Shown here: one piece after another, positions 43,991 through 53,723 of the stretch | How positions within the stretch are numbered: the first letter of the stretch is position 1 | How the letters are laid out: every line of letters begins with the position of its first letter | Source of the DNA: Candidatus Eremiobacteria bacterium | Lineage (GTDB): Bacteria; Vulcanimicrobiota; Vulcanimicrobiia; Vulcanimicrobiales; Vulcanimicrobiaceae | Direction: 5' to 3' | DNA: 64,000 nt | Assembly: GCA_963737065.1 (NCBI GenBank) | Contig: CAVTRC010000002.1 | Coordinates: forward strand, 192,001-256,000 | The notes under the pieces: generated by a model | Seen by the model: the letters and a program-made list of their open reading frames with translations, nothing else | Database searches by the model: none | Told to the model about the DNA's origin: nothing | Made by a program: the position numbers and the translations under genes

Positions 43991-45943
43991 ATGTCGGACG
44001 AGCTGTTTAATCGCGAGGAGTTCATCTCGTACTTCCGGGATGAGGCGGACGAGTTACTGCAGCAGATCGATGCGGATTTGTTGCGGCTTGAAGAGGGCGT
44101 GAATTCGGGTTCGACCGATCCCGAGATCATCAATTCGCTGTTTCGTGCACTGCATACCGTGAAGGGGTCTTCCGGTATGCTCGGCTTTGTTGACGTTCAG
44201 GGGCTCGCGCACAAGCTGGAAAATTTGTGCGATCTGCTTCGGAGAGACCGGATGCCGCTCTCCGAGAGTGCGGTCGACATTCTTTTTACGGGTCGTGATT
44301 TACTCACGGGGCTCGTGCAGGCGGCGATTGGACAAGAACAAGCGCCGGAGGGCGTTGTCGAGTACATCGACAAGCTCGATACCTTTACGTCGATTTACGA
44401 AGAGACGTCGCACGTCATCGATGGGCGAACCGGTCCGGAAGAGTCCTTTGACGAGGCGGCAGCGCACGAGGAACAGGCAACTGCGACGGACGTGGCGGCC
44501 TTCGAGGCGGAAGTAGAGCGCCTGTTGGCGCAAGCGCATTTGGCGAATGGCGCTGCACCGAGCGCGTCCGCAGAACCGCTTGCGGTTCCGGCTTTCGAAC
44601 GGCCGAATGCGGCTGCGGCTCCGGCTCAAATGCCTGCCGTGCCGGCGCCTGCGCAAAAAGCGGCTGCGAACGGCGATCACAAGCGCTCGTCGATTCATCA
44701 GACGATTCGTGTCGATATCGAACGTCTCGATGCGCTCTTGAATCTCGTTGGCGAGCTCGTAATCAATCGCACGCGTATTTCGGATATCGCCAATACGCTC
44801 GAGCGATTGATGAACGATAGATCTAGCGCTGCAGGAGGCGGCGCTCAAGCTATTATCGCGCCCCTTGCGAAGGAACTCGCTGATTCAGCGGCGTTGCTCG
44901 CGCGCACGACGAACGAAATTCAAGAGTCGATCATGAAGGTGCGCATGGTGCCGATCGGTCAAGTCTTCGACCGGTTTCCGCGCCTCGTGCGCGACGTGGC
45001 GAAGGCGCGCGGCAAGGAAGTGCAACTCGTGATCTCCGGCGCGGAAACGGATCTCGACAAGACGATCGTCGATGAAGTCGGCGAGCCGCTCATGCATCTG
45101 CTGCGCAACAACGTCGATCACGGCATCGAAGCACCCGACGAACGGGAACGTCTGGGCAAACCACGAGCCGGCACGATATCGCTCAATGCCTATCACGAAG
45201 GCAATCAGATCATCATCGAAGTGGCCGACGACGGCGGCGGAATCAACCTTGAAAAAGTGCGCGCGCGCGGCGTGAAACAAGGACTCATTTCCGGCGACGA
45301 CCGGTTGACCGATCGGGAAATCGTCGACCTGATCTTCACGCCGGGCTTTTCCACCGCCGACGTGGTGTCCGACGTCAGCGGACGCGGCGTGGGAATGGAT
45401 GTAGTCAAGCGGAACATCTCGCGCCTAAAAGGCGTCTTCGACGTCGAAACGGCCGCAGGTCAAGGGACACGCTTCACGATCAAGCTTCCGCTGACGCTTG
45501 CAATCATACAGGCGCTGCTTGTGCGCGTCGCCGACGAGCTCTACGCGATTCCGCTCGATTCCGTGATCGAATCGCAGCGCGTGGAAATGGCCGACGTGCG
45601 TACGGTACATCGCAACGAAGTCATCACGCTGCGCGGACAAGTCGTGCCGCTCGTGCGAATTGCGGAACTGTTCGAACTGGGCGGGCGGCGCGATCCGGAC
45701 AAGGTGATGATCGTGATCGTTGGCTTGCAAGGACGCCAAGTCGGGCTCGTCGTCGACTCGTTTGAAGGCGAACAAGAGATCGTCATCAAGCCGCTCTCGG
45801 ACGTCGTCGGTCGCATTCCCGGCATCTCGGGTGCGACGATCCTCGGCAACGGTTCGATTTCGCTCATCATCGACGTTCATTCGCTCGTTAGTGAAGCTCA
45901 CGTCGGCGGCAAGGTCGCGCGCGTGGAGTTTTCGGGAGTTTAG
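43991..45943 (+). CDS. cheA: chemotaxis histidine kinase
   Basis: Hpt FRALHTVKG, IRVDIERLD.LLNLVGEL, DHGIE, GRGVGMDVV, CheW domain. Confidence 0.97.
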   Translation: MSDELFNREEFISYFRDEADELLQQIDADLLRLEEGVNSGSTDPEIINSLFRALHTVKGSSGMLGFVDVQGLAHKLENLCDLLRRDRMPLSESAVDILFTGRDLLTGLVQAAIGQEQAPEGVVEYIDKLDTFTSIYEETSHVIDGRTGPEESFDEAAAHEEQATATDVAAFEAEVERLLAQAHLANGAAPSASAEPLAVPAFERPNAAAAPAQMPAVPAPAQKAAANGDHKRSSIHQTIRVDIERLDALLNLVGELVINRTRISDIANTLERLMNDRSSAAGGGAQAIIAPLAKELADSAALLARTTNEIQESIMKVRMVPIGQVFDRFPRLVRDVAKARGKEVQLVISGAETDLDKTIVDEVGEPLMHLLRNNVDHGIEAPDERERLGKPRAGTISLNAYHEGNQIIIEVADDGGGINLEKVRARGVKQGLISGDDRLTDREIVDLIFTPGFSTADVVSDVSGRGVGMDVVKRNISRLKGVFDVETAAGQGTRFTIKLPLTLAIIQALLVRVADELYAIPLDSVIESQRVEMADVRTVHRNEVITLRGQVVPLVRIAELFELGGRRDPDKVMIVIVGLQGRQVGLVVDSFEGEQEIVIKPLSDVVGRIPGISGATILGNGSISLIIDVHSLVSEAHVGGKVARVEFSGV

Positions 45944-45949
45944 TCAGCC

Positions 45950-46462
45950 ATGGCAGACGTCAAACAGGAGAACAAACAGCAGCTCTCCGGCGAAGTGCTC
46001 CAAGTCGTCTCGTTCAAGGTCGCGACCGAAGAGTACGGCGTTGACATTTCGCAAGTTCAAGAAATCATTCGTATGGTGGAGATCACGCACGTCCCGCGCG
46101 CGCCGCATTTCATGGAAGGCGTGATCAACCTGCGCGGCCAGTTGATTCCCATTATCGACCTGCGCACGCGCTTCGGCATGGCACGCATCGACGCAACGAA
46201 GAGCACGCGCATCGTCGTTACCGAGATCGGTAGCAAGCGGATCGGCATGGTCGTCGACAGCGTAAGCGAAGTCCTCAACCTCCCGATGGAAAACGTCGAG
46301 GACGCGCCGGAGATGATTGCCGGAGTCGGCACCGAGTACATCCAAGGGGTCGGGAAGATGGGCGAGCGGCTCATCATCATGCTCGACTTGACGATGGTCA
46401 TTTCGGGCGACGAGAAGCGCCAGCTCGAGCATGCCGGCGACCAAGCCGCAGTCGCCGTTTAA
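45950..46462 (+). CDS. cheW: chemotaxis coupling protein
   Basis: EEYGVDI..VQEII, GVINLRG.LIPIIDL, GMVVDSV. Confidence 0.96.
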   Translation: MADVKQENKQQLSGEVLQVVSFKVATEEYGVDISQVQEIIRMVEITHVPRAPHFMEGVINLRGQLIPIIDLRTRFGMARIDATKSTRIVVTEIGSKRIGMVVDSVSEVLNLPMENVEDAPEMIAGVGTEYIQGVGKMGERLIIMLDLTMVISGDEKRQLEHAGDQAAVAV

Positions 46463-46463
46463 C

Positions 46464-46526
46464 CTCTTAAATTATTAGTTGACAACTATCGGACCTAATG
46501 CTATCGTACTCTTAAAGAATTAGGAG
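46464..46526 (+). promoter_or_regulatory. sigma70 promoter flanked by two candidate BlaI-family operators
   Basis: TTGACA (46479-84)-N17-TG.TATCGT (46502-07); repeats CTCTTAAATTATTAG (46464-78) and CTCTTAAAGAATTAG (46509-23). Confidence 0.7.
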
Positions 46527-46540
46527 CGAGGTAGCATAGA

Positions 46541-46924
46541 TTGGCCCGAAAGAAGAGTCCGACCCTCACCGAAGGCGAGCTGCGCATCATGGAAGTGCTG
46601 TGGCGCCTTGGACGGGGGACCGTCGCTGAAGTCTCAGAAGCAATGCCGCCGCCGCCGGTGGCCTACAATACCGTTCTCACGACGCTACGGATCCTCGAAC
46701 AGAAGGGCCACGTCGCCCATGAGGAAGCGGGTCGTGCCTACATGTACTACCCGCTGATTGCGCGCGAAGCCGCCGCGCAGTCGGCCGTCAAACAAGTTGT
46801 TTCAAAATTTTTTGGAAACAATGCGGGCGCGTTAGCGCTACGTTTAATTGAGAACGAACGGCCGTCGGACGACGAACTCGACCGTTTGCGCTCGTTGATC
46901 GAACGGTACGACGAAGGGAAGTAA
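46541..46924 (+). CDS. BlaI/MecI/CopY family transcriptional repressor
   Basis: LTEGELRIMEVLW..GTVAEV..AYNTVLTTLRILEQKG..GRAYMY. Confidence 0.93.
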   Translation: MARKKSPTLTEGELRIMEVLWRLGRGTVAEVSEAMPPPPVAYNTVLTTLRILEQKGHVAHEEAGRAYMYYPLIAREAAAQSAVKQVVSKFFGNNAGALALRLIENERPSDDELDRLRSLIERYDEGK

Positions 46925-46927
46925 CGC

Positions 46928-48967
46928 ATGGCTCACCTCGAGCTGCTCGGGCCTGTAGCGCGGATCGGACTAGCGATTCTCCTCAACGGCCTGTGGCAAG
47001 GCGCGCTCATCGCGTTGCTGACATGGGTCGCACTCTATGTTTTTCGCAGTGCGAATGCGACAACGCGATATGCGGTATGGTCGCTCGCCCTATTGGCGAT
47101 CTTCATCGTCCCCGTTGTCACGAGCCTCTCGCGCGTCAGTGTGGAAACTCCGCCGGTAACGACGCACGCAACGAGCGGCGCATCAACGACAACTGCGCAA
47201 GCTGCACGCGTCGCGCGCACCGTCAGCGCGGCACCCGAGACGCGCGTTGCGCCCGTTGCAGCACCGGCGGCAGCGCCGCACGTCGCCGTGCCGTCATTCC
47301 GCTTGCGCGTTCCCGGGCTCGTTGCCCCCGTACTCTTCGCTTTGTGGGGAGTCGCGACGCTCGTCATTATCGTTCGGTTGATCGTCGCGTTTGTGGCACT
47401 CGAACGGCTCAAGCACGATTCACTGCCGCTTTCCGTGCAGTATCGCGACTCAATGCCGCGATGGATGAACGCCCTCAAAGGATCGCGCGACGTGCGGATC
47501 TGCGTTTCCGATGCCATTGAAGTGCCGATCGCGGTCGGACTCTTCGACTCGATGGTGCTCCTGCCGTCGCACCTCGTACACTCGCTCGAGCCGTCGGAGA
47601 TCGATCAAATCAGCCTGCACGAACTCGGGCATTTGCTGCGCGGCGACGATTGGACGAATGCGATTCAACGCATTGCATCCGCGCTCTTGTTTTTCAATCC
47701 CGCGGTGTGGTTTATCTCGCGCCAAATGGACGTGGAACGCGAAGTCGCGTGCGACGACTATGTGCTGCAGTTGACCGGGCAAGTCCGTCCGTATGCGTTC
47801 TGTTTGACGAAGATGGCGGAAATGACCGCCTGGCCGCACCGGCCGATGCCCGCGCCGGGTGTCTTCGCAACGCGCAAGAACATTTCGATTCGCATCGAGC
47901 GCTTGTTGCGCACGGGACGCGCGATCGGCTCGAGCATTGCGCCGAGCGTTGCGGGGAGTTTCGTCGCGGTGCTCGTGGCGGTGTTTATCGTGCTGCGGCT
48001 CATGACGCCGAGCATCGCGTTTACCGCACCCGCCGCGCCCGACCCCGCAGCCTCACCGTCGCCGGTGCGGCCGATGGCGAAGGTTGCTGCTCCGCGAAAG
48101 ATTGCGGTGAAAGTCGAGGCGCCCCGTACCGCGTCCACGACCGCGCCCGTGACAACGGTTGCGCGGGTACAAGCGTTGCCGGCGCCCGTGCAGGCGACGC
48201 CTGCGCCGGCCGCTCCGGTGCATCGCACGACGCACAAGATGCCGCAGATCGCGACGCTGCCGCACATGATCGCGAGGGTTCAGAGCAGCATTCCCAGTTC
48301 GGGAACGCTTGCCGCAAGCGTGCAGAACGCCCTAAGCAACGCCGGCGTTGCGGGATCGCACGCAAAGAACAGCGCCGGATGCACCGGCTGCAACTTCTCC
48401 GATGCAAATCTGGCGGGACGTGACTTCTCGAATCGTTCGATGGAAGGCGCGAACTTCAAGAGTGCAAATCTCGAAGGCGCGCGGTTCGATCACGCGCAGC
48501 TCACAGGCGCGAACTTCGACGGTGCCGATCTTCGGAACGCCTCGTTCCGCGGCGCCGAGCTGCAAGGTTGTAACATGCGCGCTACTCGTCTCGAAGGCGC
48601 GAACTTCGACGGCGCGCACTTGACCGGTTGCAATATCGATGTGAGCAAATTGGCACCGACGCAGGCACGCACCGTCCTCAACAGTTGCGAAGGCTGCAAC
48701 TTTGCTCACGTTAATCTCTACGGCATGGATCTGCACGGCATTCACGTCACCGGCGTCAATTTCGCCGGCGCCGATTTGCGCAACACGAATCTCTCCGCCG
48801 CAGATCTCACCGGGGCCAATCTCGCCGGTGCGAAACTTGCCGGCGCCAACCTCTACAACGCCGACCTCACCGGCTGCAACCTCCACGGCGCCGATCTGCG
48901 CGGCGTCGACCTGTCGCACACGTCGCTCACCGGCGCGAACATGGGCGACGCGATCTGGAAAGACTGA
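46928..48967 (+). CDS. BlaR1-like M56 metallopeptidase with C-terminal pentapeptide-repeat domain
   Basis: TM helices, HELGHLLRGD, FFNPAVW, EREVACDD; then TM, Pro/Ala/Thr linker and A(N/D)L/F pentapeptide repeats with CxGC caps. Confidence 0.92.
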   Translation: MAHLELLGPVARIGLAILLNGLWQGALIALLTWVALYVFRSANATTRYAVWSLALLAIFIVPVVTSLSRVSVETPPVTTHATSGASTTTAQAARVARTVSAAPETRVAPVAAPAAAPHVAVPSFRLRVPGLVAPVLFALWGVATLVIIVRLIVAFVALERLKHDSLPLSVQYRDSMPRWMNALKGSRDVRICVSDAIEVPIAVGLFDSMVLLPSHLVHSLEPSEIDQISLHELGHLLRGDDWTNAIQRIASALLFFNPAVWFISRQMDVEREVACDDYVLQLTGQVRPYAFCLTKMAEMTAWPHRPMPAPGVFATRKNISIRIERLLRTGRAIGSSIAPSVAGSFVAVLVAVFIVLRLMTPSIAFTAPAAPDPAASPSPVRPMAKVAAPRKIAVKVEAPRTASTTAPVTTVARVQALPAPVQATPAPAAPVHRTTHKMPQIATLPHMIARVQSSIPSSGTLAASVQNALSNAGVAGSHAKNSAGCTGCNFSDANLAGRDFSNRSMEGANFKSANLEGARFDHAQLTGANFDGADLRNASFRGAELQGCNMRATRLEGANFDGAHLTGCNIDVSKLAPTQARTVLNSCEGCNFAHVNLYGMDLHGIHVTGVNFAGADLRNTNLSAADLTGANLAGAKLAGANLYNADLTGCNLHGADLRGVDLSHTSLTGANMGDAIWKD

Positions 48968-48984
48968 AGCGAGGAGCAAAACCG

Positions 48985-49773
48985 ATGAAACATCTTGCGC
49001 TTGCGCTTTGCGCGCTGGCTTTGTTATCGTACGCGCTCACCGGCGCCGTCCAGGCGAAACCCACGAACTGCATGGGCTGCAATTTCGCAAGCGCCGATCT
49101 GCAAGGACGCGACTTTTCGAACGTCGACTACGTCGGCGCGAACTTCACCGGCGCGAACCTTCGCAACGCAAACTTCAGCGGCTCCAACCTCACCGGCGCG
49201 AACTTCCGCGATGCCGACTTACGCGGAATAAACTTCACGAACGTCGACTGCACGGGTTGTGCCTTTGGCGGCGCGCGCTTGAGCGGTGCGCAATTCAAAG
49301 GGGCGCGATTGACCGGCGCAAATCTGAGCGGTGCGCTCCAAGGACTCAGCGATCAGGAATTGCGTGACATCCTCAACAACTGCACCGGTTGCAACCTGCG
49401 AGGCGCGCAATTGCGCGGGCACGACCTTTCAAACATCGAGGTGACCGGCGCAAATATGGAGGATGTCGATGCATCTTCTGCGCGGTTCACGAATGCACGG
49501 CTCATCGGCGCGAATTTTCGGGATGCGAACTTGCGCAATGCCGATTTTACCAACGCCGCGCTCTGCTGGCACAATACGTTCAACAGCGGCGGAACGGTGG
49601 CCAGGCGCGAGACCGAATGCGTGCGTCTTTCCGGCGCCGACGTACACGGCGCAAAATTTACCGGCGTCCGTCTCTGCGACAGCGATCGCGGTTCGTGGAC
49701 GTGTACTCCCGCCGACGCGTCGACGATTCGCCGGTACAGCGACTCATCGCTCGACGGAGCGGTTCTACAGTAA
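48985..49773 (+). CDS. secreted pentapeptide-repeat protein with CxGC motifs
   Basis: Signal peptide ending AVQA; CMGC, CTGC, CTGC; ANFTG/ANLRN repeats. Confidence 0.9.
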   Translation: MKHLALALCALALLSYALTGAVQAKPTNCMGCNFASADLQGRDFSNVDYVGANFTGANLRNANFSGSNLTGANFRDADLRGINFTNVDCTGCAFGGARLSGAQFKGARLTGANLSGALQGLSDQELRDILNNCTGCNLRGAQLRGHDLSNIEVTGANMEDVDASSARFTNARLIGANFRDANLRNADFTNAALCWHNTFNSGGTVARRETECVRLSGADVHGAKFTGVRLCDSDRGSWTCTPADASTIRRYSDSSLDGAVLQ

Positions 49774-49806
49774 CATGCAGGCGCGGTCTTGCGTTCACGT
49801 AATAGA

Positions 49807-50676
49807 ATGCAGACCATGCGCACTCCCCTCGCGGCGGCACTCATAGGTGCCTTCCTCGCTTGTATTGCTGCCGCTCCGGCGGCCCCGAAACCGTCTCCTT
49901 CACCCGCGCCTACGCGAACCGCTCCGCCGGAGATCTACCATACGGTCGTGCATCCGGTATGCAGCGCGCTTGCGGCGAAGATTCGTCCTGCGATTGGAAT
50001 GCTACTCGAAAACGATCAAATCATCGGCAAGAGCCCGGGGATGTTCAAAGAGTACGGCATGGCGCAATTCAACCAGAGCGACGCGCAAAAGAGCATGACC
50101 GTTTTGCACATGGAAAACTTGGTCACGCCGCTTGCCAACAACGTCCTCGCGATTCAAAAAATGCTCGAAGATCCGTCGGTCTTCCCGCCGAAGGCGCGCG
50201 ATCAGGAAGATCAGCGCACGTTGGATCTCAAGAACAAGCTGCTCCAGTCGCTTGCCGACCAGCAAGCTGCACTCGACATCATCAACGGGTTCGTCGAAAC
50301 CCAGCAATTGGCCGACATGCAGCACGAAGGTTTCGGCTACATCTATGCGATTGCCGGCCGCGAGCAAAGGACGAACACGGGCGGCGTGGATCCGCTGCAC
50401 AACATCTCCCCGACGGCCGATCCGCTTCATCCGCAACCGTTCGACGATACCGTGATCAACGCGGGCTTGCCGACGAATCCGTACGAAATCGATCTCACGC
50501 GCGTCCCGGGATTGACACTCGGCTACAATCCGGTGAAGGATTTGCAACAGGCCGTCGAGTGGGCGCAAAGCGACGGTCAGAAACATGAAGACACCCTTGC
50601 AAAGACGGTCGTGCAAACCGTGAAATTGTGCGGCGGTCAAACAGGCGCAGGCGCTTCTCCGTCCCCGAAACCGTAA
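49807..50676 (+). CDS. hypothetical secreted helical protein
   Basis: Signal-like N-terminus, Pro-rich linker, helical body; start at 49807 or 49816. Confidence 0.7.
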   Translation: MQTMRTPLAAALIGAFLACIAAAPAAPKPSPSPAPTRTAPPEIYHTVVHPVCSALAAKIRPAIGMLLENDQIIGKSPGMFKEYGMAQFNQSDAQKSMTVLHMENLVTPLANNVLAIQKMLEDPSVFPPKARDQEDQRTLDLKNKLLQSLADQQAALDIINGFVETQQLADMQHEGFGYIYAIAGREQRTNTGGVDPLHNISPTADPLHPQPFDDTVINAGLPTNPYEIDLTRVPGLTLGYNPVKDLQQAVEWAQSDGQKHEDTLAKTVVQTVKLCGGQTGAGASPSPKP

Positions 50677-51095
50677 CCCAGTCCCGTAAAGCGCATCAAC
50701 CCTTCGAACGGACCGTAGCTCGCGAAGGCATCCCGCCACAACGCGTGCGCGCGCGAAAGTGCATCGTCGCGTTCGTTCACGATCCGTCGCGTCGTGAGTG
50801 CCAAGCCTGAAACGGTTGCGAGCAACAGGTCACGATCGCGCCAATTGCCGAGCGCCTCTTGCAGTTGCGAAAGGCGGCTTGCGGCTTGGAGCAGCGACGG
50901 TTCCTTCGGCGTGAAGCGTTCGAGCGCGTAGCGCAATCGCGCGCATGCGATGCGAAAGTCATGCACCTCGCGCGCGCGGCGCGTCTGCAGTGCGGGTGCG
51001 AGTGTCAATAGCTCCGCAAAGCGAACGATTGCGATGCGGCGCATCGCATCATCGATGCCGCAGGCAACCGTCAGATCGATGTTGCGGGCCTTCAT
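50637..51095 (-). CDS. CHAD domain protein, C-terminal half
   Basis: VHDFRIACARLRYALE and LQEALGNWRD; ATG overlaps the upstream stop (ATGA). Confidence 0.75.
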   Translation of the reverse strand: MKARNIDLTVACGIDDAMRRIAIVRFAELLTLAPALQTRRAREVHDFRIACARLRYALERFTPKEPSLLQAASRLSQLQEALGNWRDRDLLLATVSGLALTTRRIVNERDDALSRAHALWRDAFASYGPFEGLMRFTGLGYGFGDGEAPAPV

Positions 51096-51475
51096 ACGGT
51101 ATACCGCAATCCGGTAAGCAAACGGCGGACGCGCGAAAAACAGGCGCGTTCGCGCGCGCAAAGTTCGGATAAGGTCGTACGCGCATCGCGCCGTTCGCGC
51201 GTATCGAGCGCCGAGCGCAACGTCTCGCGCAACACCGCGGCATCCCGCGCATCACTCGTGAGATCGATCAACCGGCGCAGACGTTTGAACCGCCGCGGCC
51301 GCAGGATGTCGCGGAAATCTTTGAAGAGCGAGCGCAGGCGACGCGCTGCCGTACGGAGCTCATGAAGACGCTTGGTGGACGGCCGTTTCAAAAAGCGCCG
51401 CCGTGCCTTCATAAAGACGCGGACCTCCGCTGCACCGAGGGTTTTCGCCCATGCAATGACGCGATCGTCCGCCAT
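51092..51475 (-). CDS. CHAD domain protein, N-terminal half
   Basis: LHELRTAARRLRS and ARDAAV. Confidence 0.75.
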   Translation of the reverse strand: MADDRVIAWAKTLGAAEVRVFMKARRRFLKRPSTKRLHELRTAARRLRSLFKDFRDILRPRRFKRLRRLIDLTSDARDAAVLRETLRSALDTRERRDARTTLSELCARERACFSRVRRLLTGLRYTV

Positions 51476-51518
51476 TATGCGGTTCAAAATTCTGCTCTTG
51501 AACGGTGATCCCCGGCGC

Positions 51519-51547
51519 TTGACATCGAACATATGTTCGATTAGGAT
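51519..51547 (+). promoter_or_regulatory. SOS promoter with LexA box (Gram-positive CGAAC-N4-GTTCG type)
   Basis: TTGACA-N17-TAGGAT with the perfect palindrome ATCGAACATATGTTCGAT (51524-41) filling the spacer. Confidence 0.92.
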
Positions 51548-51555
51548 GATCACCC

Positions 51556-52257
51556 ATGCTTCCCGCTACCGCCTTCCACGACCGCCGCAACCAGCTCTTC
51601 GAAGAGCTCAAAGAGCGTCTTCACGCGGCGCCGGGGGCGGTCGGCGTGGATGTCGATCGCCTCATTACGAGCGGGATCGCACCACTCGATTGTCTCCTAG
51701 GCGGCGGCTTTCCACTTGGATCGCTCGTGACGCTCGAGGGGCTGGGCAGTGCCGGTCGATGGAGCATCGCTGCGGCGCTGCTTGCCCAGGTGACACGCCG
51801 AAGCCTCGGCGCCGTTATCGACGACGGTGAACTGTATCCGCCCGCATTGGAAGATGCCGGCGTCCGTCTCGACCGCTTGCTGGTTATTCCCGCAAAAACG
51901 CCGGTGGGCATTGCCCGGGCCGTCGATGTGATCTTGCGCTCGCGCGCTGCTCGCGTCATTGTCATGCGTGCTCCGGCGTTACGTGCGGCTATGTGGACTC
52001 GTCTTGCAACCCTCGCTCATCGAGCGGGATCCGTCCTCGTCGTGATCGCCGGCCGCGCGGGTACAGAACTCGCCGGCGTGGCGACCGTTCGCCTGGGATG
52101 CATCTTCGAACGCGCGGTGATGCGCGGCTCGCGCGGGCTCTGGGGGTGTTTTTCCGGATTTACGCTGCGTGCGGAACTGCGCAAACACAAAGCCGCGCGG
52201 AGAGCCGGGGGAGCCGTTTCGCTTCGTTCAGCCTTTCTTAAACCCGTGGGCGCATGA
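51556..52257 (+). CDS. imuA: ImuA-like RecA-fold mutasome protein
   Basis: SGIAPLDCLLGGGFPLGSL, LYPPAL..AGVRLDRLLVI; degenerate Walker A; first gene of the cassette. Confidence 0.8.
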   Translation: MLPATAFHDRRNQLFEELKERLHAAPGAVGVDVDRLITSGIAPLDCLLGGGFPLGSLVTLEGLGSAGRWSIAAALLAQVTRRSLGAVIDDGELYPPALEDAGVRLDRLLVIPAKTPVGIARAVDVILRSRAARVIVMRAPALRAAMWTRLATLAHRAGSVLVVIAGRAGTELAGVATVRLGCIFERAVMRGSRGLWGCFSGFTLRAELRKHKAARRAGGAVSLRSAFLKPVGA

Positions 52258-53723
52258 ATCGCATGAATGAGGAAGTGGCGATGCTGATCTGCTTGCGCGT
52301 TCCCGACTATCCGTTGGCGGTTGCCCTCGGCGGCGCTCGCGTCTGCGAGGACGTTCCGTTGCTCGTCGCCGACCGGTTCGATCGCGGACATGTTATCGCG
52401 CTTGACGATCGTGCACGCGAATGCGGTGCGCGTGCTGGGCAAACGGTGACGCAAGCCGCAGCCGTTGCACCCAATGCGCGTGTCGCCGTCCACGATGCGG
52501 TTCGCGCGCGAGCGGTATGGAACGACGTGCTCGATGCGCTCGATGCGGTAACGCCGCTGATCGACGACGTGCGCGAAGGTATCGCGTTTCTCGACATGCG
52601 CGGGATCGCCGGATCGTTTAACGATTGGGTCGTGCAGATTCATAGCATTCTCGATCGCTTCGATCTGCCGATTCGCACGGGTGCCGGTCCCAACCGGTTT
52701 TGCGCGTATGCAGCAAGTTGGATTGGCGATGCAACCGCGATCGAACCGGGAGAGGAGGCGTCGCGGTTGGCGCCGTTGCCGCTCGACGTGCTCGATGTCG
52801 ATCCGCATGCGCACGAGCGATTGCGTTTACTCGGCCTCTCGACGCTTGGAGAACTTGCGCGCTTGCCGCACGGACCGTTCGTACGCCGCTTCGGACGCGC
52901 CGCGGCGCAGTGGCATGAGTGGGCGCGCGGCATCGACCGCACGCCGTTCATTCCGCGCAGCCATGCGGTAGCGATCGAAGCGTCGATGTTTGGTGAAGGG
53001 TCGGCGGAGAGCGAAGAGGCGGTGCTCTTCGCGATGCGCGTGCTGCTCTCTCGGATTTGCCATGATTTGGAACGGTGCGGCAAACGCGCAAGCGCGCTCG
53101 ATCTCGAAATCGAACTGGAGAACGGACACAACGAACGCCTGGAAATTCTCCTTGCGGCGCCGACTGCGAACGACCGCGCAATGCTCGACGTCGTGCGAGC
53201 TAAAATGGAAGGGCTGACGTTCGATGCGCCGCTCTGCGGACTGCGGCTACGCGCGCTCCGCTTAGAAGAGGGAGGCGAAGCGCTGCCGCTCGTGCGCAAC
53301 GACGATATCGACGTCCAAAACGTTGCCGTCGTCCTCGCGCGTCTGGAAGCGCTGCTCGGTGAACCGGTTCGTCGCGCGCGCACGCGCGCCGCGTATCCCG
53401 TCGAAGAACGCTTCACCTACGAACCGTTTACCGTTCCGAAACTACGAGAAGCGTATTCAGCATTGGTAGTAAACGAAAGCGCGGCCGTACCGCAATTGCG
53501 GCTCATGGACGTAACGGAGGTCGACGTGTCGGTTGCGCGCGGGGAGCCGTCTGTTATCAACGGACACGCGGTCGTTGAATGTGCCGGCCCGTGGCGGATC
53601 GACGAAGCATGGTTCACATCGCCGGTGACGCGGGACGAATACGACGTTGTTCTTGACGACGGCAGCGTGCGGCGTATCTACCGCCAAGGCAATCACTGGT
53701 ATCTGCGGGGCTCGTATGATTGA
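52254..53723 (+). CDS. imuB: ImuB, catalytically inactive Y-family polymerase
   Basis: A..CGARAGQTV.QA, LAPLPL, LGLSTLGELARLP, C-terminal GPWRID..W...RDEY. Confidence 0.88.
   Translation: MNRMNEEVAMLICLRVPDYPLAVALGGARVCEDVPLLVADRFDRGHVIALDDRARECGARAGQTVTQAAAVAPNARVAVHDAVRARAVWNDVLDALDAVTPLIDDVREGIAFLDMRGIAGSFNDWVVQIHSILDRFDLPIRTGAGPNRFCAYAASWIGDATAIEPGEEASRLAPLPLDVLDVDPHAHERLRLLGLSTLGELARLPHGPFVRRFGRAAAQWHEWARGIDRTPFIPRSHAVAIEASMFGEGSAESEEAVLFAMRVLLSRICHDLERCGKRASALDLEIELENGHNERLEILLAAPTANDRAMLDVVRAKMEGLTFDAPLCGLRLRALRLEEGGEALPLVRNDDIDVQNVAVVLARLEALLGEPVRRARTRAAYPVEERFTYEPFTVPKLREAYSALVVNESAAVPQLRLMDVTEVDVSVARGEPSVINGHAVVECAGPWRIDEAWFTSPVTRDEYDVVLDDGSVRRIYRQGNHWYLRGSYD

Follow-up and report, generated by a model that had tools for sequence, protein, structure and literature searches.

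A putative BlaI/M56 switch with a pentapeptide-repeat sensor domain and its predicted secreted paralogue in a Vulcanimicrobiaceae genome

In the bla system the sensor BlaR1 and the effector BlaZ both bind the drug, and the operators of staphylococcal bla and mec are built on TACA/TGTA half-sites. Here we describe a locus of the same broad kind—a BlaI-family repressor with a BlaR1-type M56 membrane metalloprotease—in which the predicted sensor is a pentapeptide-repeat solenoid and the next gene encodes a signal-peptide pentapeptide-repeat protein (PRP) akin to it, hereafter the secreted PRP (sPRP). The locus occupies positions 46464-49773 of a 64,000-nucleotide (nt) window, by which we mean the whole stretch of DNA analysed, namely contig positions 192,001-256,000 of CAVTRC010000002.1 (assembly GCA_963737065.1), forward strand; coordinates are window positions unless another locus is named. 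The source, Candidatus Eremiobacteria bacterium, is an uncultured soil bacterium of the Vulcanimicrobiaceae in the Vulcanimicrobiota (Eremiobacterota), with a genome of 3.08 Mb; to our knowledge, nearly all that is known of this phylum comes from metagenome-assembled genomes (MAGs).

The closest described systems are BlaI/BlaR1 and MecI/MecR1 of Staphylococcus aureus and Bacillus licheniformis (structures 8EXP-8EXT; PMC9834060, drawn on here, like the other papers and the preprint cited below except where they are cited through a review, from the accessible parts of the text). Shared with them are a repressor gene directly upstream of the gene for a four-transmembrane-helix (TM) HExxH gluzincin of family M56, a C-terminal domain predicted to lie outside the membrane, an apparently self-regulated promoter with paired operators, and a regulated product related to the sensor in binding function or fold. 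Unlike those systems, the window has no penicillin-binding transpeptidase-like domain, beta-lactamase or penicillin-binding protein (PBP), has its sensor linked to TM4 by a tether some 120 residues long, and keeps its predicted regulated genes mostly in the same operon; its half-sites are CTC(T/C)TAA/TTAGGAG instead of the staphylococcal bla/mec type.

Other BlaI/M56 pairs that do not sense beta-lactams have been described, namely CenIR of Clostridioides difficile (bioRxiv 10.64898/2026.04.08.717257) and PetR/PetP of Synechocystis, which responds to copper (PMC7896320). The CenIR preprint surveys about 15,000 M56 proteins in 254 architectures, of which about 6% carry a transpeptidase and 96% lie near a BlaI homologue, and gives as architectures with at least 100 entries none, TonB_C, TP, M23, Plug, CarbopepD_reg_2, DUF4825 and Amidase_3. 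Pentapeptide is absent from that group, and the accessible parts of the preprint do not mention a free secreted copy of a sensor; rarer architectures may be listed elsewhere in it. Our literature search on pentapeptide repeats with BlaR1, peptidase M56 or Eremiobacterota found no description of the architecture; a characterised version with a known ligand would have counted against an earlier reading of this DNA made from its letters alone (the sequence-only reading).

Among PRPs, the best-known members with the fold of the window domains are Qnr, MfpA, AlbG and McbG, but these are cytoplasmic, gyrase-directed DNA mimics, and the window proteins score far below the NCBIfam cut-offs for Qnr (65 against 240 bits) and MfpA (54 against 360 bits). 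Almost all PRPs outside the Qnr/MfpA group lack a known function (review PMC8145042). Rfr23 (2O6W), Rfr32 (2F3L/2G0Y) and Arabidopsis TL15 (3N90) resemble the window domains as solenoids outside the cytoplasm with disulfide-stabilised caps, in Rfr23 a CxxC bracket between Cys39 and Cys42; as covered in that review they are free proteins, none being fused to a signalling protease (PMC8145042). A precedent for a secreted PRP as an envelope regulator comes from YjbI/PerA of Caulobacter crescentus, a signal-peptide PRP of the outer membrane with conserved cysteine pairs flanking a quadrilateral beta-helix. This protein silences UzcSR and ChvGI; zinc stress triggers its degradation, its level is then restored, and the feedback loop of stress signalling to which it belongs remodels the proteins of the outer membrane (PMC12864828). 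The sPRP likewise has a secretion signal and conserved cysteine pairs flanking its beta-helix. YjbI, however, acts on two-component systems and not on an M56 protease, and cannot function without its charged C-terminal tail (PMC12864828), whereas the tail of the sPRP ends in ...DGAVLQ and is not lysine-rich.

The locus reads, on the plus strand, as a promoter with an operator-like site on either side, a repressor gene of the BlaI family, an M56 protease gene and the sPRP gene, three close-packed open reading frames (ORFs) followed by a fourth, ORF-4 (Table 1). Only 3 nt separate blaI from the protease gene, and the sPRP gene begins 17 nt after the latter with its own ribosome-binding site, GAGGAG, and no terminator predicted in between; on this spacing, blaI, the M56-PRP gene, the sPRP gene and ORF-4 form a putative operon. 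A look-up of sequencing runs listed neither RNA nor DNA reads. The ORF-4 product has an N-terminal hydrophobic, signal-like segment and no match in Pfam or NCBIfam, and a search of the protein-cluster Atlas reached a best score of 0.76 and returned nothing usable.

Table 1. Features of the locus and of related promoters in the same genome (L and G prefixes mark coordinates outside the window)
Feature	Position	Strand	Remarks
Operator-like site OP1, CTCTTAA-N4-TTAG..	46464-46481	+	Abuts/overlaps -35 hexamer; same position and motif upstream of blaI in most relatives
Sigma-70-like promoter, TTGACA, 17 nt, TATCGT	46479-46507	+	10/12 consensus matches; TG before -10
Operator-like site OP2, near-palindrome CTCTTAA-AGAA-TTAGGAG	46509-46526	+	0 mismatches to pattern; right after -10
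BlaI-family winged-helix repressor, 127 aa	46541-46924	+	PF03965, E 5e-30
M56 (BlaR1-type) membrane metalloprotease with C-terminal PRP ectodomain, 679 aa	46928-48967	+	PF05569, PF00805
HExxH zinc motif (H231, E232, H235)	47618-47632	+	Invariant in 120/120 aligned homologues
Fourth TM helix, residues 339-359	47942-48004	+	Model pLDDT ~92; hydropathy peak 341-359
Pro/Ala-rich linker, ~120 residues	48005-48376	+	Predicted disordered (pLDDT <50 for 381-481)
PRP solenoid ectodomain, residues 484-679	48377-48964	+	pLDDT >90
Ectodomain CxGC caps, CTGC 485-488 and CEGC 587-590	48380-48391, 48686-48697	+	Invariant in 120/120 homologues
sPRP, 262 aa: signal peptide, CxGC-capped solenoid modules, C-terminal Cys-rich hairpin module	48985-49773	+
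ORF-4, fourth ORF of putative operon, 295 aa (start TTG 49789; a start at ATG 49807 would shorten it)	49789-50676	+
Second BlaI/M56 operon	L004:4508-7604 (G000:C2:472507-475603)		M56 protein 642 aa
Orphan signal-peptide PRP, 188 aa, no CxGC cap	L086:2354-2920 (G000:C1:1588853-1589419)	-	Same promoter design
64-aa ORF with signal-like N-terminus (putative gene)	L087:1315-1509	-	Directly behind fifth promoter
DUF5916-like protein, 686 aa	L116:169-2229 (G000:C1:1844468-1846528)		Behind two-operator promoter

The domain make-up of the two switch proteins and their homology to the BlaI/BlaR1 families are directly established and uphold the repressor and peptidase named in the sequence-only reading. 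The repressor matches Penicillinase_R over its full length (PF03965, profile positions 1-114 of 115) and does not reach the cut-off of any named BlaI, MecI or CopY model of NCBIfam, its top model there being CopY/TcrY at 51 bits against a cut-off of 122. The protease matches Peptidase_M56 over residues 25-324 (PF05569, E 7e-34), and its C-terminal part matches Pentapeptide in eight stretches (PF00805, E 3e-64), with no penicillin-binding domain (PF00905) found by Pfam. Hydropathy agrees with an AlphaFold2 model based on 120 homologues (mean predicted local distance difference test score, pLDDT, 80.4) in showing four TM helices, at residues 2-38, 44-69, 132-164 and 339-359, with the protease domain between TM3 and TM4, and an EREVACDD motif (E270-D277) is as invariant in the 120 aligned homologues as the zinc motif. 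By sequence, residues 137-282 match residues 107-252 of S. aureus BlaR1 (8exp; E 1e-7), a stretch that includes the HExxH; by fold, Foldseek aligns the model with 8exq/8exp over 282 columns (E 7e-7 to 3e-6), with a TM-score of 0.58 when normalised to the 241-residue TM-and-protease entry 8exr. The NCBIfam model blaR1_generic gives 94.5 bits against a cut-off of 400, its match being limited to N-terminal residues 39-358.

With a PF03965 repressor gene beside the gene for a four-TM HExxH M56 gluzincin, the module appears to be a BlaI/M56 (BlaIR-type) switch in the broad sense, and on the BlaR1 paradigm its protease would cleave the repressor. Because BlaR1 has an Nout-Cout topology, with the active site facing the cytosol (PMC9834060), everything after protease residue 359 is predicted by homology to lie outside the cytoplasm, which agrees with the extracytoplasmic placement of the repeat domain in the sequence-only reading.

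As that reading had also recognised, a PRP solenoid with CTGC and CEGC caps follows the last TM helix. It is reached through a linker that varies in length and sequence among homologues, where it gives gappy, unconserved columns, and consists of two four-coil modules split by a helix at residues 577-586, each module beginning with CxGC. In the models, both this ectodomain and the sPRP show a 20-residue strand periodicity at pLDDT >90, their top fold matches are all PRPs, and sequence or fold matches include Rfr23 (2O6W), Rfr32 (2F3L/2G0Y) and TL15 (3N90).

The sPRP itself matches Pentapeptide in four stretches (PF00805, E 2e-40). Its signal peptide, at about residues 1-24, is an N-terminal hydrophobic helix followed by AVQA|KP and then by the first of three CxGC motifs (CMGC 29-32, CTGC 89-92, CTGC 133-136), an arrangement that the sPRPs of relatives share. 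The model (pLDDT 92.6) places a signal helix at 2-17, solenoids at 28-118 and 132-190 joined by a helix at 123-130, beta-hairpins at 192-212 and 229-242, and a C-terminal helix. Six cysteines are invariant in 53 aligned homologues (C29, C32, C194, C212, C231 and C240), the last four at the bases of the two hairpins that make up a C-terminal Cys-rich module (residues 194-240), and the ten cysteines of the mature protein would fit an oxidising compartment.

BLASTP aligns the ectodomain with the sPRP at 46% identity over 166 residues (E 8e-41). Because this alignment stays collinear and takes in both the non-repeat linker and the second CxGC, the sPRP is, by sequence comparison, a specific paralogue of the sensor domain, beyond shared repeat composition, and the supposition that both were made from the same CxGC modules holds once the two domains are aligned and modelled. 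In a maximum-likelihood tree computed from 59 domains of each kind, sensor and secreted, with two loci left out because they lack CxxC at the expected place, a single branch separates the two sets (SH-aLRT 99, 1 change), and nearest relatives come in a similar order on each side. Since the domains form two clean clades with similar relative order, the tree indicates a single old duplication, followed by co-inheritance of sensor and sPRP. Path lengths to the same relatives are longer for the sPRP than for the sensor (0.23 against 0.15, and 0.83 against 0.47), so that the sPRP evolves the faster of the two.

The architecture and its gene order are conserved, in counts across relatives that are not phylogenetically independent. 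A protein search returned 531 matches, and the best 120 (43-100% identity) are all M56 proteins with pentapeptide repeats, called "pentapeptide repeat-containing protein" or another generic name where named at all. A scan of species-representative genomes gave 350 relatives, of which the best 80 were kept as loci; nearly all are Eremiobacterota/Vulcanimicrobiota MAGs, six being titled otherwise (Acidoferrum/Acidiferrales, Alphaproteobacteria, Proteobacteria). A PRP ORF was called after the protease gene in 60 of these loci and not in nine, while the remainder have a split protease (five), less than 700 nt downstream (two) or no complete gene (four). Among the 69 loci that are intact and extend 700 nt or more downstream, a same-strand PRP gene therefore lies within 260 nt after the protease gene in 61, a figure that adds to the script count of 60 one locus (L042) whose PRP ORF call ran upstream; the PRP gene is also still there in three of the five split-protease loci. 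Co-conservation of the secreted gene, another element of the sequence-only reading, is thereby borne out.

Further downstream, 53 loci have a PRP gene and at least 3.3 kb beyond it. The gene after the sPRP encodes a DUF5916-like protein in 48 of them, with an ORF-4 homologue next in 16 of those 48; ORF-4 comes directly after the sPRP gene, as in the window, in four (the window's closest relatives), and one locus has neither. Across the 80 loci the DUF5916-like gene is present in 61, and it is still found in five of the eight without an sPRP. Three of the latter (L012, L015, L017) have it divergent from the blaI promoter across an operator-rich spacer, a layout that resembles a classical bla-style divergon. 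Two other loci (L022, L038) have neither an sPRP nor a DUF5916-like gene, and carry two tandem ORF-4 homologues after the M56-PRP gene.

In a phylum sample, 135 of 301 genomes have a match at E <= 1e-80, a tally that takes in paralogous M56 proteins and three unpublished genomes (G177, G212 and G247). Counted by hand among the matches listed, the match extends at least as far as query residue 639 in 89 genomes, and only one of these falls outside the family of the window. By family, any match occurs in 132 of 206 genomes of the window's own, 2 of 22 of one other (f3) and none of 72 in the other 19.

The promoter design is conserved too, and rare in the genome. The operator-like sites contain a direct repeat, CTCTTAAATTATTAG at 46464 (46464-46478) and CTCTTAAAGAATTAG at 46509 (46509-46523), and promoter-like sites in 5.8 kb number four against 1.4 expected. 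Most of the related upstream regions (n=79) keep the layout: the first site, (C/A)T(C/A)(T/C)TAA-N4-TTAG, leads straight into the -35 hexamer (TTAG|TTGACA), and the second, often a perfect palindrome CTCCTAA-N4-TTAGGAG, directly follows the -10. Of 115 loci, 88 have the junction TTAGTTGACA, which lies some 450-600 nt before the M56 start in the 80 kept loci. The 18-nt operator pattern, at no more than one mismatch, has seven matches in the 3.08-Mb genome against one for a reversed control, and the pattern TAANNNNDTAGTTGACA has five against none. The two repeats seen at the promoter in the sequence-only reading are thus where it placed them, and conservation in relatives together with these genome counts rules out chance repeats. 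In a subgroup of ten loci (L051, L063, L069-L071, L074, L075, L078, L079, L082) the stretch before blaI looks coding (it ends ...GWGP...) and the TTAGTTGACA junction lies about 150 nt further upstream, suggesting an extra small gene heading the operon.

The five TAANNNNDTAGTTGACA-type promoters precede this operon, a second BlaI/M56 operon, an orphan PRP gene, a 64-aa ORF and the gene for a 686-aa protein. By PF00805 the genome has only three PRP genes, and all three stand behind this promoter type. The orphan gene occurs in three of four same-genus genomes, each time with a two-site promoter and once in a different upstream context, and was not found in one examined genome of another genus. 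Along its whole length the 686-aa protein shows 41% identity (E 4e-170) to the product of the gene directly after the sPRP gene in a relative (L031), which has a weak DUF5916 match (E 2e-6); the Atlas clusters nearest to the 686-aa protein have DUF5916 in 19-33% and CBM9_1 in 14-27% of members, which is a lead. Because this promoter census places these genes behind the same design, the output is predicted to be a small exported set, comprising two PRPs, the DUF5916-like protein, ORF-4 and perhaps the 64-aa peptide.

The genome has three M56 genes, of which the third carries TonB_C without an obvious partner. The protein of the second operon has an ectodomain of helical repeats of roughly 30 residues (LKSVGVTPDY-type) without a Pfam match, and its gene is followed, with overlapping stop and start, by that of a 262-aa protein in which these repeats recur (30% identity, E 3e-23) and whose N-terminus has a hydrophobic segment. 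A same-strand ectodomain homologue lies immediately downstream in all ten loci of this type, from our genome and nine relatives in several genera; 11 other fetched loci were PRP-type and, since some lie on contigs already represented among the 80 loci above, were not recounted. Judged from their sequences, a sensor plus a free secreted copy is a layout shared by both systems of the genome.

These observations can be assembled into a mechanism. A BlaI-family dimer would bind two CTC(T/C)TAA-N4-TTAG(G/T)AG sites flanking the promoter, so that the switch represses itself. The M56 protease would sit Nout-Cout in the inner membrane with its zinc site towards the cytoplasm, and its disordered tether of about 120 residues would hold the two-module, CxGC-bracketed solenoid in the periplasm. 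A change at the solenoid would activate the protease, BlaI would be cut and a small envelope regulon derepressed: the switch itself, two free secreted PRPs (one adjacent, one distant), the large DUF5916-like protein and a further exported protein. Tethered and free PRPs would have one extracytoplasmic partner in common, or be hit by a common insult, so that the sensor reports a condition that the free PRPs handle, and the induced free copies, competing for it, would provide negative feedback. This BlaI/BlaR1-type proteolytic switch with a shared partner and feedback by free copies is the reading that we prefer, tentatively and at slightly less than an even chance. As a general BlaIR rule—that the outward sensor is a tethered paralogue of a secreted protein under control of the switch, and gauges that protein's extracytoplasmic partner—we consider the idea somewhat unlikely.

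Several observations weigh against the shared-partner design. In a joint alignment of sensor and secreted domains the conserved columns are almost all structural, and no shared conserved surface patch was seen of the kind expected at a common ligand site. The sPRPs carry one to three CxGC modules, a number that does not track that of the sensor (two in most loci), and eight of 69 loci have no adjacent sPRP, so a free copy next door is not obligatory. As to the regulon, the 686-aa protein, taken from its called GTG, is without about 90 N-terminal residues of the L031 protein and shows no signal-peptide-like segment, and the operator of the second system, CTACTAA-N4-TTAGTAG, is near enough for cross-talk in a genome with three BlaI paralogues.

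Some of the same evidence could be read as a homotypic feedback, or split sensor, in which free PRP binds tethered PRP by solenoid-solenoid association and keeps the protease off, until the free protein is lost through stress-induced proteolysis, export or consumption, whereupon BlaI would be cut and the pool replenished. The two paralogues have been kept together since what appears to be a single duplication, the layout recurs in 10/10 loci with an unrelated helical-repeat ectodomain, and YjbI, which silences envelope-stress kinases, is replenished after zinc-induced degradation by the very pathway that it silences (PMC12864828). We nevertheless think this unlikely: the C-terminal Cys-rich module of the sPRP is missing from the sensor, module number varies independently of the sensor, eight of 69 loci have no adjacent sPRP, and a pure stock-keeping loop does not explain the non-PRP proteins in the regulon.

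A thiol, redox or metal sensor, in which reduction or oxidation of CxGC, or its binding of a soft metal (Zn, Cu, Cd), alters the solenoid cap and activates the protease, would account for the invariance of C485, C488, C587 and C590 in 120/120 homologues and of C29/C32 in 53/53 sPRPs. Metal sensing has precedents among BlaI/BlaR1 relatives, in copper-responsive PetR/PetP (PMC7896320), and in the removal of YjbI by zinc stress (PMC12864828); CopY/TcrY, moreover, is the repressor's top NCBIfam model, if far below cut-off. Yet the second Cys of each CxGC is the inward-facing first position of the first pentapeptide (the repeat register being read from sequence), which fits a structural staple like Cys39-Cys42 of Rfr23; no YjbI cysteine is needed for zinc-induced turnover in Caulobacter (PMC12864828), and the paralogous helical-repeat system, whose ectodomain may or may not carry such a motif, has the same layout. 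Given that they open the first repeat, and given the Rfr23 precedent, the CxGC motifs look like structural disulfide brackets, with the pairing deduced from sequence position and hairpin boundaries, which tells against redox state, one of the signals proposed in the sequence-only reading; we hold a thiol or metal sensor to be distinctly unlikely.

That reading had favoured a decoy or scavenger, the ectodomain sensing an external toxin or polymer and one soluble copy, as the sole effector, soaking it up, which amounts to a special case of the shared-partner model. The logic resembles that of BlaR1/BlaZ, in which the drug is bound by sensor and effector alike, and the faster evolution of the sPRP is what would be expected of a decoy or of a protein at the surface. 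What follows the sPRP most constantly is nonetheless the DUF5916-like protein, present in 61/80 loci and in five of the eight that have no sPRP. Because the predicted output extends to a broader regulon, with a second secreted PRP, the 686-aa DUF5916-like protein and ORF 49789-50676 beside the soluble copy, a pure decoy is too narrow, and we regard it as very unlikely. A beta-lactam sensor, already rejected in the sequence-only reading, is dismissed on the lack of a PBP domain (PF00905) and of any beta-lactamase, PBP or PBP2a among neighbours and operator-bearing genes, and a Qnr/MfpA-like DNA-mimic gyrase protector on scores far below the family cut-offs and on the predicted extracytoplasmic location.

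With three PRP genes behind one repressor-type promoter, and one of them fused to a well-understood protease, the locus offers a first regulatory handle on the role of secreted PRPs, and turns their function into a question for reporter assays. It adds a defined, conserved sensor type to the recognised diversity of BlaIR systems that do not sense beta-lactams, and, with the second system of the genome, suggests that a sensor paired with its free secreted copy is a recurring arrangement, one not described in the literature examined, some of it accessible in part. For the Eremiobacterota/Vulcanimicrobiota it provides a small predicted envelope regulon and an operator motif. If the general BlaIR rule were true, the solenoid would be the first PRP solenoid acting as a signal receptor, and secreted PRPs would be envelope-homeostasis factors working with a CBM9/DUF5916-type surface protein.

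The surroundings of the locus in the window were also inspected. Immediately upstream, on the plus strand at 43991-46462, lie cheA (Hpt, H-kinase_dim, HATPase_c and CheW domains) and cheW; this linkage is not kept among relatives, CheW being found in only two related loci. Downstream, two overlapping minus-strand ORFs (50637-51553; 174 and 153 aa) match different halves of the CHAD profile (positions 154-225 and 13-122), as if a frameshift or a sequencing error had split a single CHAD gene. Beyond them, plus-strand ORFs of 233 and 489 aa (51556-53723) have translations that by eye resemble an ImuA-like and Y-family-polymerase (ImuB-like) pair.

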